This document shows positions 24,028 to 30,761 of a stretch of 64,000 bases of DNA, piece after piece. Within the stretch, counting starts at the first letter, position 1; each line of letters opens with the position of its first letter. Both the position numbers and the translations under genes were made by a program. The notes under the pieces were generated by a model, which made no database searches, was not told the DNA's origin, and saw nothing but the letters and a program-made list of their open reading frames with translations. The stretch is taken from assembly GCA_964016885.1 (NCBI GenBank), contig OZ024749.1, positions 43,090,001 to 43,154,000 of the forward strand. The letters are read 5' to 3'. The DNA is from Eledone cirrhosa (lineage: Eukaryota).

Positions 24028-24230
24028 ACTATATATATATATATAACTATATATATATATATATAACTATATATATATATATAACTATATATATATAACT
24101 ATATATATATATATATAACTATATATATATATAACTATATATATATATATAACTATATATATATATTTATATATATATATATAAATATATAACTATATAT
24201 ATAAATATATAACTATATATATATATTTAT

Positions 24231-24279
<49 letters not shown>
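23394..24279. repeat. TAAC(TA)n satellite, continuing at 29191-29405 and 30762-31163
   Basis: Same TATAACTATA unit on each side of the inserted elements. Confidence 0.9.
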
Positions 24280-24281
<2 letters not shown>

Positions 24282-25185
24282 CTTGGCACTTGTTGGTATA
24301 AGATGTGGATTGTCGTCTCTCCGGATTTTGAAATTTTAATATTTTAAATCGACAGTAATCGGATTTATGTATGGTTTTAATTCTTCAGAGGACAAGGAAA
24401 ACATACAAAAAAGATAAGTTTTTGTGCTTTGTCGCAATTATTTTGAAGTATATTTTACATATATTACCGTTTTGAACATGTTTATTTTCACTGTATGATT
24501 CATTCATGGGAGACAACACACACACACGTGCTTTCTATTTTTGTTTCATACAGAGCATTTTGGTTTAGCTTAAGCAATTTTGTATTAACTTTGATATTTC
24601 TGAGTAACATAATTTAATTTGATATAATCTTGTTTGATTTTGTATAATCTTATCTGTATTTGACCCGATTTCGTTGTTTCTTGTATGATATGCTGATATT
24701 ACAATAACTCCGTATATTTGTAAACAGACATTTACATCGTGTTTCTATATCTCTGTTTCCGGTTTCTCCCATTCATTAATTTAAATTTAGATTTAAAAAT
24801 TTATTTTTATATTTATGAACTGCAGTTGCTCACGCTCTCACGCTGTCTCTATCTCTCTCCTTCCTCTCTCTCTCCCCCTCTCTCTCTCTCGATCAACGAG
24901 CTCTCTTTCTCCCTCTCTCTAGATCAACGAGCTCTCTCTCTCTCTCTCTCTCTATCTATCTTCTCTCTCTCCCTCTGACCCCCCCCACTCTTCCCGCTAT
25001 CTCTCTCGCTCCCCTCTATCTCTCTCGCTCCCCTCTTCTGTCTCCCCCTTTTCTTTTCTTTTCTTTTCTTCTGTTTCTCTTTTTCTCTCACTGGAGTTAT
25101 ATCTCTATCTCCCTCCCTCACTCTGTCCCTCTCTAACCTCTACTCTACACCTCCCACTGTCCCTCTTTCTCCCCTCCACAGCGAA

Positions 25186-26148
25186 ATGGACTGCATGCAG
25201 GAAAAATGGGAAAAATGTGAAATCAGGAGTCAGCGAAACTGGTCGAAGATTGAACTAGCGGTTTTGATCAAGGGGTGGACTATGGCTGATGGGTCTCCAC
25301 CAAGCAAAAAGATGGCGGAGAACCTGAAGAGCCATGGGTTTATGAGGACCCTGGTACAGATAGAGAGAAAGAGAAAAGAAATTGAGAAGGCGTATGTCCT
25401 CATAGCGCCTCATATGGCGATGCTAAGCCGTGTCCTCAGGGAGGAGAAAACCGAAGGGAGGGATGAGGAGAAGGAGAGGGAAAAGGAAGAGGAAAAGGAA
25501 AGGGAAAAAGAAAAGGAGGAGAGCACAAGCACGGACCTGAAAGAAAATGATATACCCTCCGCTACAGGCAGGGAGGGCAGGCCGGGCAACCAACAAGCTA
25601 AGGGCAAAGGTGAAAAGCGAAATCACCTTCCGAAGGAGAACCAAGCGCAGAGGGACCAGTGGACAACTGTTCAAAGAAAGAACAGAAAGCACCGAGACAC
25701 TGGGAGCAAAAAACACCAAGTAATGTGCAAGTTTTTCAAGAACGGGACATGCTGGCATGGAGAGACAGGGATGGGATGCAGATTCGCCCACCCTAGGTCT
25801 CAAACGAACTATGCCCATCATACTCGCGCAACATGCCCCAGCCAAAGCCGAAATAAGCCGCTCCAGAAGTATGCTGATGTCGCGCGTGCTGCACCAACAA
25901 GGAGAAGGCACGCACATGCCGACGAGATACAGATGGCAGCAGCAGATCAGAAAAATTTTTTAGTGATGGCAGAGAAGATTGTGGGACAGCTGACCTGGCT
26001 GCATCGTCTCCAGAGCCAGGGTCATCCACACCAGCACTCGAGACCACCGCAGTTAAGGGACCCAGAGTGGCCGCCGCTGACACCAGACCAGGTGTCATAC
26101 CGACAGCCATTACTGGCACCCCAAAAGTCACACCAGTGCTGCTGCTGA
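25186..26148 (+). CDS. LINE ORF1 protein (Myb/SANT-like N-terminus, E/K-rich tract, CCCH zinc finger)
   Basis: 320-aa ATG-started ORF. Contains WSKIELAVLIKGW...MAENLKSHGFMRTLVQIERKRKEIEKAY and C-x7-C-x8-C-x3-H (CKFFKNGTCWHGETGMGCRFAH). Confidence 0.8.
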   Translation: MDCMQEKWEKCEIRSQRNWSKIELAVLIKGWTMADGSPPSKKMAENLKSHGFMRTLVQIERKRKEIEKAYVLIAPHMAMLSRVLREEKTEGRDEEKEREKEEEKEREKEKEESTSTDLKENDIPSATGREGRPGNQQAKGKGEKRNHLPKENQAQRDQWTTVQRKNRKHRDTGSKKHQVMCKFFKNGTCWHGETGMGCRFAHPRSQTNYAHHTRATCPSQSRNKPLQKYADVARAAPTRRRHAHADEIQMAAADQKNFLVMAEKIVGQLTWLHRLQSQGHPHQHSRPPQLRDPEWPPLTPDQVSYRQPLLAPQKSHQCCC

Positions 26149-29108
26149 ATGTCAGGGGCCTGGTGAAACTCAGCAACATGAGTAAAATTTCCTACCTGGG
26201 AGACTTAGCCATAAGCAATCAAGCACTATGCATGGCACTAACCGAAACGCACCTGACAAGCAGTATAGCAGATGCAGAAATACATATACCGAAATATACT
26301 GTATTTCGTTCGGACAGGAAGGAGAGAACTCATGGTGGGGTTGCTCTGTATATCCGTGAAGATGTCACACCAATTGTACTGTTGACACATTCAAACTCAG
26401 TCTGTGACACACTGATAATACATATGAAGCAACTACAGACGGTAATATGTGTCACATATCGGCCGCCCGATGCCCCCAGTCATGAGGGTAAATTTGAGGA
26501 TAGCCTAAGTAGGATAGAAGAGGTCCTTGACAAACTGGACCAGGGTCTCAACATCCTACTGCTGGGAGACTTCAACCTACCAAAGGTCAAATGGCCTGAG
26601 GGCCACCTCCTCCCTGGAATGACGTCAATAGAACAGAGACAGACGGAATCCCTGCTGGCCCTCACACACAGGCTGTTCATGGAGCAAGCAATACTCCTCC
26701 CAACAAGAGGCGAAAATGTCCTGGACCTCTGTTTTACAAACAACGAAGTGCTCATCCACAATGTAAAAGTGACACCAACAATTCTCTCGGATCATAACTT
26801 GGTAGAGCTAATGATATGTGGTCCAAGAGAACCAACAGAGACAAAACCACCAAGAAGCTCCGGGACGCTATCCAGCCTTAACTTCTACGGGGCTGACTGG
26901 AAGAAGATTAAGAGTGAAATCCGGAAGCAAACATGGAGTGCAAACATCGCCACACAAGACACTAACACACAATTTCAACACTTCATGACAACGATACACA
27001 CCATATGCAAAAAGTGTGTCCCGGAGAAAGAGGCAAACAGACACAAAAATCTTATTCCCAGAGATAGGAAAATCCTTATGAGACGTAGAACTAAACTCTC
27101 AAACCAGTTGAATAGTCAACAAAACCAAAACAAGAAGGAATCCTATTTGAAACGTGCACTACTTGACACCGAGATTGCACTCAAGCTTTCACATGAGAAT
27201 GAGAGGGCAAGGAAAGAGAACAGGGCCATAGAAAACATTAAAACAAACCCTAAGGCCTTCTTTAAATTTGCAAAAGAAACTGCCTCAGTACACTGCAAGA
27301 TTGGACCACTCTTCCACACGGACGGTTCATTAACCGAAAATCCCCAAGAGATATGTGAAATACTGAACGAACAGTACAAAAGTGTCTTCACATGTCCACT
27401 GAGGCACATGCAAATAACGAAGCCAGAGGAGTTCTTTGATGCCACAACACTACATCAAGAAATGGCAACCATCAACCACATAGACATAACGGAGGAGGAT
27501 GTGGTGTACGCCATTGATGAAATTAGAACAGACTCGGCTGCTGGACCTGATGGATTCCCAGCAGTTCTCCTAAAAATATGTAAGCGGGCCTTAGCAACTC
27601 CACTGAAGATGCTCTTCAGAAGCTCCTTGGCTAGCGGTGTACTACCCAGGGAGCTGAAAGAAGGCACAATATGCCCTATCCATAAAGGAGGTAGTAGAGC
27701 GGAGGCCAAGAACTATAGGCCAGTCTCCCTGACGTCGCATATCAGTAAGGTCATGGAGCGAGTCATCAGAAAGAAACTAATCACTTTCCTCGAAGAAAAT
27801 GACCGCCTGACTAGCACGCAACATGGCTTCCGCCCAGGAAGAAGCTGCCTTACACAGCTGCTACATCACTACGACTGGGTACTGAGACAGCTACTAGACA
27901 GCTCACATGTAGACGTGATATATCTTGACTTTGCGAAGGCCTTTGACAAGGTCGACCACGGAATGATATGTCACAAACTACACGGACTTGGCATAGCTGG
28001 AAAAGTAGGTGAGTGGCTGCATGGCTTCCTGAGGGACAGAAGCCAGGCAGTCGCAGCAAATGGGGCCCTCTCGAGGGAAACACCGATAACAAGTGGGGTG
28101 CCTCAGGGGACAGTCCTGGGACCACTACTGTTTTTGGTGGCTCTCTCGGACATGCCCTCTGTGGTGCATGCAACAACATCCCTCACTAGCTATGCTGATA
28201 ACACTAAGGTAGCACAGGCAATCAAAAACCCGGCTGACGCTGCCCTCTTACAGCAGGATCTGGATGCCATATACAGATGGGCGGAAGAAAACAACATGCA
28301 GTTTAATGCTGGCAAATTTCAAGCCCTACAATACAAACCTGCAAACACAAACACAAATATAGCGGAACACAGCTACACAGGACCAGGAGGGACCGATATC
28401 CCCGTGTCAAAATCGATACGAGACCTGGGCATAGACATGAGCGATGATGCATCTTTTTCTTCACACATCATGAAGGTGGCGACAGCATGTAGACGATTCG
28501 CTGGCTGGATCTTGAGGACTTTCCTTACAAGAGATCGAGACACCATGTTGACACTGTGGAGGACTTTTGTCCTAAGCCGCCTGGACTACTGCTCCCAGCT
28601 GTGGTCACCCCATAGTGTCAAACTAACCACAGAGCTTGAGGCAATCCAGCGAAGCTACACCAAGAGGATTGCCAAGATGAGGGAGACAAGCTACTGGGAG
28701 AGGCTGAAGGAACTGAACCTCTACTCCTTGGAGCGAAGACGGGAGAGATACGCAGTGATCTACATGTGGAAAATCCTGGAGGGACTAGCACCAAACTTTG
28801 GCATTGGGAGCTGGACCAACCGTCGAACAGGACGTCACTGTGTGGTGCCAAAGGTCCCGTCTTCCACATCTAGAATAAGGAGCAGGTATTGCAATAGCCT
28901 GGGATTCAAGGGCCCTCAACTCTTCAACAGGCTGCCGAGGCATCTGCGAGACTTGCATGACGTGGAGGTGGATGTCTTTAAGAAACATCTCGACACCTTG
29001 TTATCCAGGATCCCGGATGAGCCCACAGCAAGACACGAGGGAAACCTAAGGGCAGCAGCAACAAACTCCCTCCTACACCAGTGGCCAACCTATACAGGCT
29101 GGAGATAA
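26067..29108 (+). CDS. LINE ORF2: AP endonuclease plus reverse transcriptase (frame open from 25878; true start unclear)
   Basis: APE motifs NVRGL, LTETHL, YRPP, GDFN, SDH. RT motifs NYRPVSLTS, QHGFR, DFAKAFD, GVPQGTVLGP, YADN. C-terminal LYSLERRR. Confidence 0.96.
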   Translation: MAAADTRPGVIPTAITGTPKVTPVLLLNVRGLVKLSNMSKISYLGDLAISNQALCMALTETHLTSSIADAEIHIPKYTVFRSDRKERTHGGVALYIREDVTPIVLLTHSNSVCDTLIIHMKQLQTVICVTYRPPDAPSHEGKFEDSLSRIEEVLDKLDQGLNILLLGDFNLPKVKWPEGHLLPGMTSIEQRQTESLLALTHRLFMEQAILLPTRGENVLDLCFTNNEVLIHNVKVTPTILSDHNLVELMICGPREPTETKPPRSSGTLSSLNFYGADWKKIKSEIRKQTWSANIATQDTNTQFQHFMTTIHTICKKCVPEKEANRHKNLIPRDRKILMRRRTKLSNQLNSQQNQNKKESYLKRALLDTEIALKLSHENERARKENRAIENIKTNPKAFFKFAKETASVHCKIGPLFHTDGSLTENPQEICEILNEQYKSVFTCPLRHMQITKPEEFFDATTLHQEMATINHIDITEEDVVYAIDEIRTDSAAGPDGFPAVLLKICKRALATPLKMLFRSSLASGVLPRELKEGTICPIHKGGSRAEAKNYRPVSLTSHISKVMERVIRKKLITFLEENDRLTSTQHGFRPGRSCLTQLLHHYDWVLRQLLDSSHVDVIYLDFAKAFDKVDHGMICHKLHGLGIAGKVGEWLHGFLRDRSQAVAANGALSRETPITSGVPQGTVLGPLLFLVALSDMPSVVHATTSLTSYADNTKVAQAIKNPADAALLQQDLDAIYRWAEENNMQFNAGKFQALQYKPANTNTNIAEHSYTGPGGTDIPVSKSIRDLGIDMSDDASFSSHIMKVATACRRFAGWILRTFLTRDRDTMLTLWRTFVLSRLDYCSQLWSPHSVKLTTELEAIQRSYTKRIAKMRETSYWERLKELNLYSLERRRERYAVIYMWKILEGLAPNFGIGSWTNRRTGRHCVVPKVPSSTSRIRSRYCNSLGFKGPQLFNRLPRHLRDLHDVEVDVFKKHLDTLLSRIPDEPTARHEGNLRAAATNSLLHQWPTYTGWR

Positions 29109-29211
29109 AATGTGTAGCAACAAGGGCGGTGCCCCAGCATGGCCTCAGCCGGATGGCTGAAACAGGTAAAAGAGTAAAAGAGTAAAAGAGAATATATAAA
29201 TATATAACTAT

Positions 29212-29244
<33 letters not shown>

Positions 29245-29300
29245 AATATATAACTATATATATATATAACTATATATATATATATCTATATATATATATA

Positions 29301-29337
<37 letters not shown>

Positions 29338-29405
29338 CTATATATATATATATATAACTATATATATATATATATAACTATATATATATATATATAACTA
29401 TATAA

Positions 29406-30761
29406 CAGTTGCAAACTATCCCTGAAAGGTCGGGCGGAAGTGGCGAACACCTACATAGCGTCCGTCATCTACTACCGCCTGACCGTAGTGCCCTGCCCAA
29501 GGGAAACCCTCACCAAGATGGAGCGCGCGCTCTTCCAATTCCTTTGGAAGAGGCGGGCTCCTATGGTGAGGAGATCCATCTGCTGTCAACACCCTTCGAA
29601 AGGAGGGCTGGGGATGCCGTGGCTAATGATGCGTAAACACGCATTAAGGCTACGGCACCTCTACGTATTCCTCACCGGACAACCGGTGTGGGCCTCGTTT
29701 GTGAGACGAACCTTTCCCAGACTCGTCTCACTCACCGAGCTGCAATCCTGGGTCAAGCAAAGACCGAGAAAACTGGGCGCCTTGCACACTGAGTGTGCCC
29801 AGGCGCTCACCGCCCTCTGGCAGGCGGATCCGGTTATCAGTGGAGACTCCACCGCAACATTCTATAGAGGGCTGGTACGCAGCAGGTGCGACGACGCCCT
29901 CGGAGAAGCCCTAGACATGGAGGAGGACGAACTGGCCAGCCTGTTCGGTAGGACATTCAGCCCAGGACCTATGGACAATTTCCAGAAGTCCCTGGCCTGG
30001 CAGTGCTACCGAGGGGCTTTACCCGTTCGAGAAAGGCTCTACAGACACGGGCGCCCGGGTAGGGACCCCGCCAAAAAGATCTGTCCCAGATGCGTGTGCG
30101 ACGAGGAAACCGTTGCACACGCATTGGTACACTGCTCGGGCGTAGCCGATCTGTGGGGCTATGTCGAACAACTGCTGTCAAGGGTGGGACCGATCCGGTT
30201 GACCACCGAGTCTATTGTAATGATCAAGCCGCCTCCCCCCTTCAAAGATGAAGCAGAGGCGGTGTTTCTGTGCGTAATAGCCATGGCGAAAGAGGTTGTA
30301 TGGTGGACGCGTCTGAAAGGACTGAGGTCAGGCACCTTTCTCTCTGGCCAACAACTGGTCCGTTTCTTCCGATATCATTTCGGAAGAAGGATCAGGATGG
30401 AGAGAGAGGTGCTGCACCCCAGCCGTTTCTATGAAAGATGGGTGAAAGTGGCGAGAATGGCCCGTGTGAATGGGCCTTCACTCTACATCAGACTATAGGT
30501 GAGGAAGATGAAAGACCAAGGGAGCACCCCTTCTCTGTGCTCCTGAGGAGAAGGGTTGCACACTTTTTTCGGGGGTGTGTGCGACCCCCCAAGGCGCCTC
30601 CTCTCTATTGAGGATTTTGTTAAAAATTTTATTTTTTGTTATATCTTATTTTATTTTTATATTTTGTTATTGCCTCCTCCTTATTGAGGACGCCTTTTTG
30701 TGTAAACTCCCCCCTTTGTACTTGTCCCACTTTTGATGCCCTAGTGGCAAATAAAAGAAAC
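29406..30761 (+). mobile_element. 5'-truncated L1/Tx1-clade LINE
   Basis: Open frame 29407-30498 with LSLKGR...FLWK...GGLGMP and C-x2-C-x8-H-x4-C (CPRC...ETVAHALVHC). 3' UTR has AATAAA at 30750-30755. Confidence 0.88.
29407..30498 (+). pseudogene. C-terminal part of L1/Tx1 ORF2 (post-RT region plus zf-RVT-type zinc finger)
   Basis: Uninterrupted frame starting directly at the (TA)n junction, with no endonuclease or RT core. Confidence 0.85.

Follow-up and report, generated by a model that had tools for sequence, protein, structure and literature searches.

A full-length LINE was found on the + strand of the window (the whole 64-kb stretch of DNA analyzed here), embedded in (TA)n at positions 24280-29190. 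Its features, all on the + strand, were as follows:

24280..25185, +: 5' UTR with an internal (CT)n-rich tract; the 5' end, GGCTTGGC, is at 24280
25186..26148, +: ORF1, 320 aa, from the ATG at 25186 to the TGA at 26146-26148 (ORF list)
25726..25797, +: CCCH zinc finger (weak Pfam matches)
25878..29105, +: ORF2 frame (-1 relative to ORF1), stop-free for 1076 codons (ORF list)
25878..26144, +: open -1 frame without ATG; past the putative shift site, an S/T/P-rich linker toward the endonuclease
25953..25959, +: second in-phase heptamer, A_AAT_TTT, overlapping T_TTT_TTA
25956..25962, +: slippery heptamer T_TTT_TTA, read as AAT TTT TTA; predicted -1 shift site
25991..26024, +: stem-loop (arms 25991-26000 and 26014-26024), 28 nt downstream of the heptamer
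26145..26795, +: APE endonuclease domain (PF03372, E=4e-9; PF14529, E=4e-11)
27678..28331, +: reverse transcriptase (RT) domain (PF00078, E=2e-28)
29106..29108, +: ORF2 stop codon
29166..29190, +: 3' tail, (GTAAAAGA)x3, followed by (TA)n

The presence of APE and RT in ORF2, a simple-repeat 3' tail ((GTAAAAGA)x3), and many 5'-truncated copies (1,359 genome-wide matches to the RT motif vs 353 to the junction motif) identified the element as an APE-type non-LTR retrotransposon, the C-terminus of ORF2 being presumably like that of CR1-group elements. ORF1 consisted of a weak Myb/SANT-like N-terminus, one CCCH finger, an F-L helix, and a Q/P-rich tail; its Pfam matches, zf-CCCH (E=0.097) and Myb (E=0.13), were both below the cut-off. 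The sole relative of ORF1 among proteins of 176-560 aa was an Octopus vulgaris protein (54% identity), which makes an octopod host likely, and a search of the ESM Atlas with ORF1 gave no usable match. The catalytic motif of RT (28191-28202) was YADN in the window and YADD in 99 of the first 100 copies listed, and the window copy itself is, therefore, probably inactive. Both ends of the element were inside (TA)n tracts (24200-24279 and 29192-29404). By look, 15 of the 18 full-length copies inspected (among L001-L030) started straight after (TA)n: 12, including that of the window, with the GGCTTGGC end directly after the repeat, and three a few bases off. The family may target TA microsatellites; the genome itself is also very TA-rich. 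A second, different LINE was represented at 29398-30498 by a 3' fragment that encoded a zf-RVT domain (E=5e-6) and was open for 366 codons.

The ORF list and translation bore out the description of the junction in an earlier note: ORF2 (APE and RT) was in the -1 frame relative to ORF1 and stop-free from 25878; T TTT TTA at 25956-25962 was in the X_XXY_YYZ phase of the zero frame; and no in-frame ATG preceded APE, the first one being at 26178, ten codons past the Asn of NVRGL and inside the endonuclease. ORF2 was open from the site and had no start of its own. ORF1 extended 61 codons past the heptamer, and this stretch included a helix that was conserved among relatives. Taken by itself, the window had a -1 frame whose openness did not exceed chance (codon shuffle, P=0.45; synonymous resampling, P=0.065).

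The family was young and abundant, with 858 junction candidates in the 3.0-Gb genome, the best 40 of which were ~100% identical; such near-identical genomic copies say nothing on the conservation of the heptamer. Of 120 loci retrieved, 104 remained once duplicates and the window itself (16 in all) had been removed, and 96 of these spanned the junction. T_TTT_TTA was intact in 77 of these 96 copies (59/67 young and 18/29 older) and A_AAT_TTT in 59 (7/29 older). As a candidate for the main site, A_AAT_TTT was rejected on this lower retention in older copies and on its absence from all 21 clade relatives (see below), and is likely incidental. In the copies spanning the junction, the A5T6 run (25951-25961) showed 4.2 substitutions per site vs 1.4 at other A/T sites; it was a hot spot in young copies too (1.45 per site vs a background of 0.23), with A25954C in 10 of the 96 copies, and misalignment of RT at the run is perhaps the cause. 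Since copies with the same heptamer change had at most one other rare change in common, these changes appear to have arisen repeatedly, in dead copies, and not to mark lineages.

A pattern search of the whole genome detected 173 exact junctions, no copies in which the run was longer by one A or T between intact flanks, and no copies with three non-T bases replacing the run (control pattern, 353). These results indicated that the two-frame state is the family's own, and that neither fused nor obviously spliced templates are copied back. An ATG in the ORF2 frame before APE was found in only 3 of 86 indel-free copies, at three different positions. Therefore, neither of two observations that the earlier note had named as counting against its reading, a family-wide in-frame ATG before APE or a single fused ORF, was made. 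Searches of the same genome with pieces of the proteins P0002 and P0003 recovered the same family only. The main contig of an independent run (X3) carried the same junction with one difference, located outside the run. In a related organism, one contig had T25958G in the heptamer, and the O. vulgaris protein P0001, with KKFCG where the -1 frame of the window gives EKFFS, implies by its residues a copy without the heptamer.

Relatives were sought by an APE-only alignment, and loci were thus picked by likeness in APE, blind to the junction: the best 80 of 222 confirmed matches in metagenome contigs were kept and, together with 2 further APE matches from genome contigs, gave 82 loci. A search of viral contigs yielded no relatives. 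A quick IQ-TREE analysis of 68 of the 82 loci (14 had too little APE), the window, and seven proteins, built from APE-region sequence only, though after the junctions had been inspected, grouped the window with 21 DNA loci (SH-aLRT of the clade, 96). Pairwise APE identity in the clade was 28-80% (median, 38%). The ORF1s of the clade had weak PHD and CCCH matches, and, as judged by eye, the CCCH finger of the window was like the first CCCH of these PHD+CCCH ORF1s.

ORF2 was in the -1 frame in 21/21 clade loci, and between the site and APE this frame was free of stops over 180-654 nt. An exact T_TTT_TTA was found in 16 of the 21, near where the -1 frame opens. The remaining five sites were assigned by eye: four were variants at the same F-L position (G_TTT_TTA in L126, T_TTT_TTG in L144, and G_GAT_TTT in L130 and L134), and that of L201, A_AAA_AAC, was without F-L. 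The abstract of PMC11050907 calls G_GAU_UUU a typical -1 motif. The conservation of heptamer, phase, and -1 frame in relatives, by which the earlier note had proposed to check its reading, was thus observed. No in-frame ATG preceded the APE start in 15 loci, and one was present in 6. ORF1 ended at the APE start or 8-68 nt before it in all 21 relatives, and likewise in the window. When sequences were clustered at 60% identity, the motif was found in 13 of 16 clusters, the window included; the sites are homologous, and these counts are, therefore, of non-independent events.

In the overlaps of the clade, all 16 occurrences of T_TTT_TTA were in the right phase, and the two wrong phases contained none. 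Elsewhere, no in-phase occurrence was found at 16,607 codon positions (0/4,267 in upstream ORF1 and 0/12,340 in ORF2). Only this specific motif was phase-specific: generic canonical heptamers were not (19 vs 15 and 2). Since none of the 60 other F-L pairs used T_TTT_TTA (Fisher p=1.8e-13, uncorrected for descent), the conservation of the heptamer is not a protein-level effect. As a descent-aware check, the codons of invariant APE residues were scrambled (5-6 codons for the Leu of LDLxF; TTC in 17/20 for the Phe of GDFN), and the F-L junctions used TTT in 21/21 and TTA in 18/21 cases, including the window. The site, therefore, had the nucleotide-level conservation beyond protein need that characterizes -1 frameshift sites. 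The last stop in the -1 frame preceded the site by a median of 18 nt (n=22), and the frame was open thereafter, with a summed log10 P of -24.5 (codon shuffle) and -34.8 (synonymous resampling). These statistics show that, from the site on, the -1 frame has been under selection to stay open, and heptamer, phase, and open frame were all far beyond chance across relatives.

We consider it likely that ribosomes reach ORF2 by a programmed -1 frameshift at U_UUU_UUA, the product being an ORF1-ORF2 fusion of ~1307 aa. This fusion had been proposed in the earlier note, and the lack of a family ATG, the lack of a fused ORF, and the conserved heptamer support it. Most ribosomes would finish ORF1, producing the 320-residue protein with the conserved F-L helix and Q/P tail. 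In a minority, tRNA-Phe and tRNA-Leu would re-pair on UUU UUU (tandem slippage), and the slipped ribosomes would read through a disordered S/T/P linker into APE. In the predicted product, 259 ORF1 residues are followed by 1048 read in the -1 frame, which gives the ~1307 aa in the order ORF1-linker-endonuclease-RT, and slippage by a minority would provide a high ORF1p:ORF2p ratio. The overlapping -1 peptide was of low complexity and variable length (60 to 218 residues across relatives), as a linker would be. As far as sequence comparison can indicate, the claim is wider than the family of the window, extending to the whole clade and more distant LINEs. The junction is real, and the frameshift mechanism is strongly indicated by comparison.

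Four other explanations were considered, which, even taken together, are improbable. The main rival is that TTTTTTAG is a 3' splice acceptor, and that splicing, in cis or in trans, supplies ORF2 with an in-frame upstream exon; we regard it as unlikely. A G follows the heptamer in 15 of the 16 exact relatives and in the window, and splicing would likewise predict a fixed phase. However, the slippery site was found without that AG in L128 (TTTTTTA-TTG), L126 (GTTTTTA-CGG), L130/L134, and L175; the run was always T, never TTC, after a sequence that was A-rich, not pyrimidine-rich; and distant relatives had A_AAA_AAC or T_TTA_AAC at the equivalent place. Moreover, the RNAs of LINEs that make ORF2p are normally copied back, so that spliced copies are expected, whereas no genomic copy joined the downstream sequence to three non-T bases (control, 353; a search covering some exon ends only).

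Equally unlikely, in our estimation, is that ribosomes terminate at the end of ORF1 and reinitiate nearby without an AUG, the mechanism suggested for human L1 and SART1, with the heptamer being simply an F-L motif. Reinitiation is in print for both elements (PMC2881922), GTG/CTG codons are present at 26136-26145 beside the ORF1 stop, and the ORF1 end close to the APE start in all relatives and the window would suit it; however, that position is equally expected from a linker needing only to span the ORF1 tail. Reinitiation also leaves unexplained the exact codons (0/60 in other F-L pairs), the -1 frame open over 180-654 nt from the heptamer, and the heptamers in distant elements.

Slippage of RNA polymerase on A5T6, by which one added base would fuse the ORFs in a share of transcripts, is very unlikely. 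The run was a mutation hot spot in copies, but six T's are a short run for polymerase slippage, and such transcripts should be copied back, whereas no extra-base copies were found against 173 exact ones; moreover, codon phase is not needed, yet the motif was found in one phase only. That the family has a single ORF, split in the window copy or assembly by a one-base mutation or error, would suit a homopolymer run and the existence of single-ORF relatives (L155, L166, and P0084), but is refuted, with next to no probability left, by the 173 genomic copies and the X3 main contig with the same junction, the lack of extra-base copies, the 61 codons of ORF1 past the site with their conserved helix, and the offset common to 21/21 relatives.

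Regarding RNA structure as a stimulator of the proposed frameshift, a stable stem-loop 5-9 nt after the heptamer, as in the HIV-1-type cassette, was not found, and the likeness was at the heptamer only. The stem placed by the earlier note at 25991-26023 was present in sequence, 28 nt away, and ended one base further, at 26024; its proposed stimulatory role was not borne out, since the minimum free energy folds of the window were no more stable than those of shuffled sequences in any of five windows (z=-0.16 to +0.85). The region at +4..+44 behind the heptamer gave z=+1.1. GATGGCAG (25965) and CTGCATC (25999), a pairing suggested in the same note, were both present; however, folding that allowed for pseudoknots gave no support beyond shuffles, 26 of 150 of which matched the best pseudoknot, starting 6 nt after the site (a crude, stacking-only scan), and in the contigs of the related organism G25965A and G26001A break the pairing. 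The stem arms were changed only in some of these contigs.

In the clade, a 40-nt fold just downstream of the site had z<-2 in 5 of the 21 relatives, and a hairpin was located about 7 nt downstream in L131, L132, L136, L137, and L138. The excess of structure was weak in the clade (Wilcoxon p=0.06 for 40 nt and 0.04 for 60 nt) and somewhat more distinct outside it (p=0.01), and no consensus structure or covariation was detected among nine relatives (RNAalifold and two named structures). The heptamer, slippery in itself, may work here aided by weak RNA structure or by none at all.

A long candidate ORF1 that overlapped ORF2 and was in the right frame was present in 40 loci: the 21 of the clade and 19 outside it. 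After dropping a duplicate (L179) and four whose candidate was unlike a real ORF1 (L155, L158, L166, and L202), an in-phase canonical heptamer was found in 13 of the 14 remaining two-ORF LINEs with a -1 overlap (0.7 expected): T_TTA_AAC, A_AAA_AAC, T_TTT_TTA, or A_AAA_AAA. Elements with an esterase ORF1 used T_TTA_AAC or T_TTT_TTA in overlaps of only 10-43 nt; others used A_AAA_AAC. In the esterase (GDSL)-ORF1 LINEs L143, L149, L165, L175, and L185, ORF1 ended at T_TTA_AAC-TAG or T_TTT_TTA, and a strong GC hairpin was located about 10 nt downstream of the site in L175 (z=-2.9) and L185 (z=-3.2). In other relatives, the two ORFs were fused into one, shared a frame that a stop interrupted, or were in a +1 arrangement, and the mechanism is, on these arrangements, apparently widespread, not universal. 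We are inclined to think that -1 frameshifting is the usual route to ORF2 in a large part of CR1-like animal LINEs, whose ORF1s are of three or more unrelated types (PHD+CCCH, esterase, and, by eye, L1-like), that their replicase is a Gag-Pol-like ORF1-endonuclease-RT fusion and not a free ORF2p, and that stop readthrough or outright fusion takes its place in sister lineages.

The -1 site of HIV-1 gag-pol is U_UUU_UUA (PMC5009743). The heptamer, phase, N-F-L reading, and 3' G are the same as in the window, and in both the ORF of a nucleic-acid-binding protein precedes a polymerase ORF that lies in the -1 frame. In contrast to gag-pol, the window element is non-LTR, with no protease seen to free the enzyme, its family is without a stable stem close behind the site, and a long ORF1 tail overlaps the linker. 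Dictyostelium TRE5-A and TRE3-A are likewise two-ORF APE-RT LINEs which, according to a passage of PMC5911963, "require a -1 frameshift" for ORF2; however, they are amoebal, target tRNA genes, and have a C-terminal zinc finger, and that passage names no slip site or test, whereas the site of the window family was identified and is conserved over a separate group of elements related to an animal LINE. Human L1 and silkworm SART1 also have bicistronic RNA and a low ORF2 output dependent on ORF1 translation (passages of PMC2881922, PMC3894237, and PMC10275272), but these make a separate ORF2p by reinitiation (PMC2881922 and PMC10275272), whereas ORF2 of the window family is without a start codon and is predicted to be fused to ORF1.

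Recoding has been proposed for other non-LTR elements. The part of PMC5009743 consulted lists frameshifting for Drosophila HeT-A and unusual initiation for L1; unlike in the window, the shift in HeT-A is within gag, and RT is absent. For Paramecium non-LTR groups 1-3, +1 shifts, reinitiation, or readthrough were suggested from consensus sequences (PMC5405496). The CR1/L2 lineages of the Jockey superfamily, as described in passages of PMC4120745, share an ORF2 with APE and RT and a short tandem 3' tail, and their PHD or esterase ORF1s occur among the relatives found here, but these passages list no CCCH-type ORF1; in its main text, as available, "frameshift" and "overlap" do not occur. The window family may be called CR1-like; the APE tree contained no named reference elements. 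In descriptions of overlapping-ORF LINEs from the 1990s, frameshifting was raised as a possible mechanism. The literature searched by title and start of abstract, a scope that most subscription papers and Repbase Reports fall outside, contained no description of a slippery site conserved among LINEs of animals, and the portions consulted of PMC1965478, PMC4700185, PMC1925062, PMC1947958, PMC3087515, and PMC10294476 contained nothing bearing on the question.

The translation of LINE ORF2 is named as an open question in PMC3894237 (passage), and the worked cases, L1 and SART1, are of reinitiation. A defined seven-base site makes this question testable by a reporter for a whole group of elements. 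If the frameshift is true, the real N-terminus of the enzyme would be ORF1, which would change its annotation, expression, and use as an insertion tool, and the ORF1p:ORF2p ratio would have a simple basis; these elements would also enlarge the catalogue of frameshifting by many old, naturally occurring -1 sites, some apparently without a close RNA stimulator.

Several arrangements among relatives differed from a -1 overlap. P0084 was recorded as a single ORF1-ORF2 frame (one contig; protein record only), and PHD or PHD+CCCH domains were joined to APE-RT in one open frame in P0084, L155, and L166, which suggests tolerance of fused products. In L171 (1173-1178) and L174 (1930-1935), one TGA, with CTG or CTT directly after it, was all that separated ORF1 from an ORF2 in the same frame, and APE was not preceded by an ATG; both are candidates for stop readthrough, UGA-C being a context associated with readthrough. 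The contigs that contain the LINE fragments L201 and L202 were assigned to bacterial MAGs, for which eukaryotic contamination is the most likely explanation.
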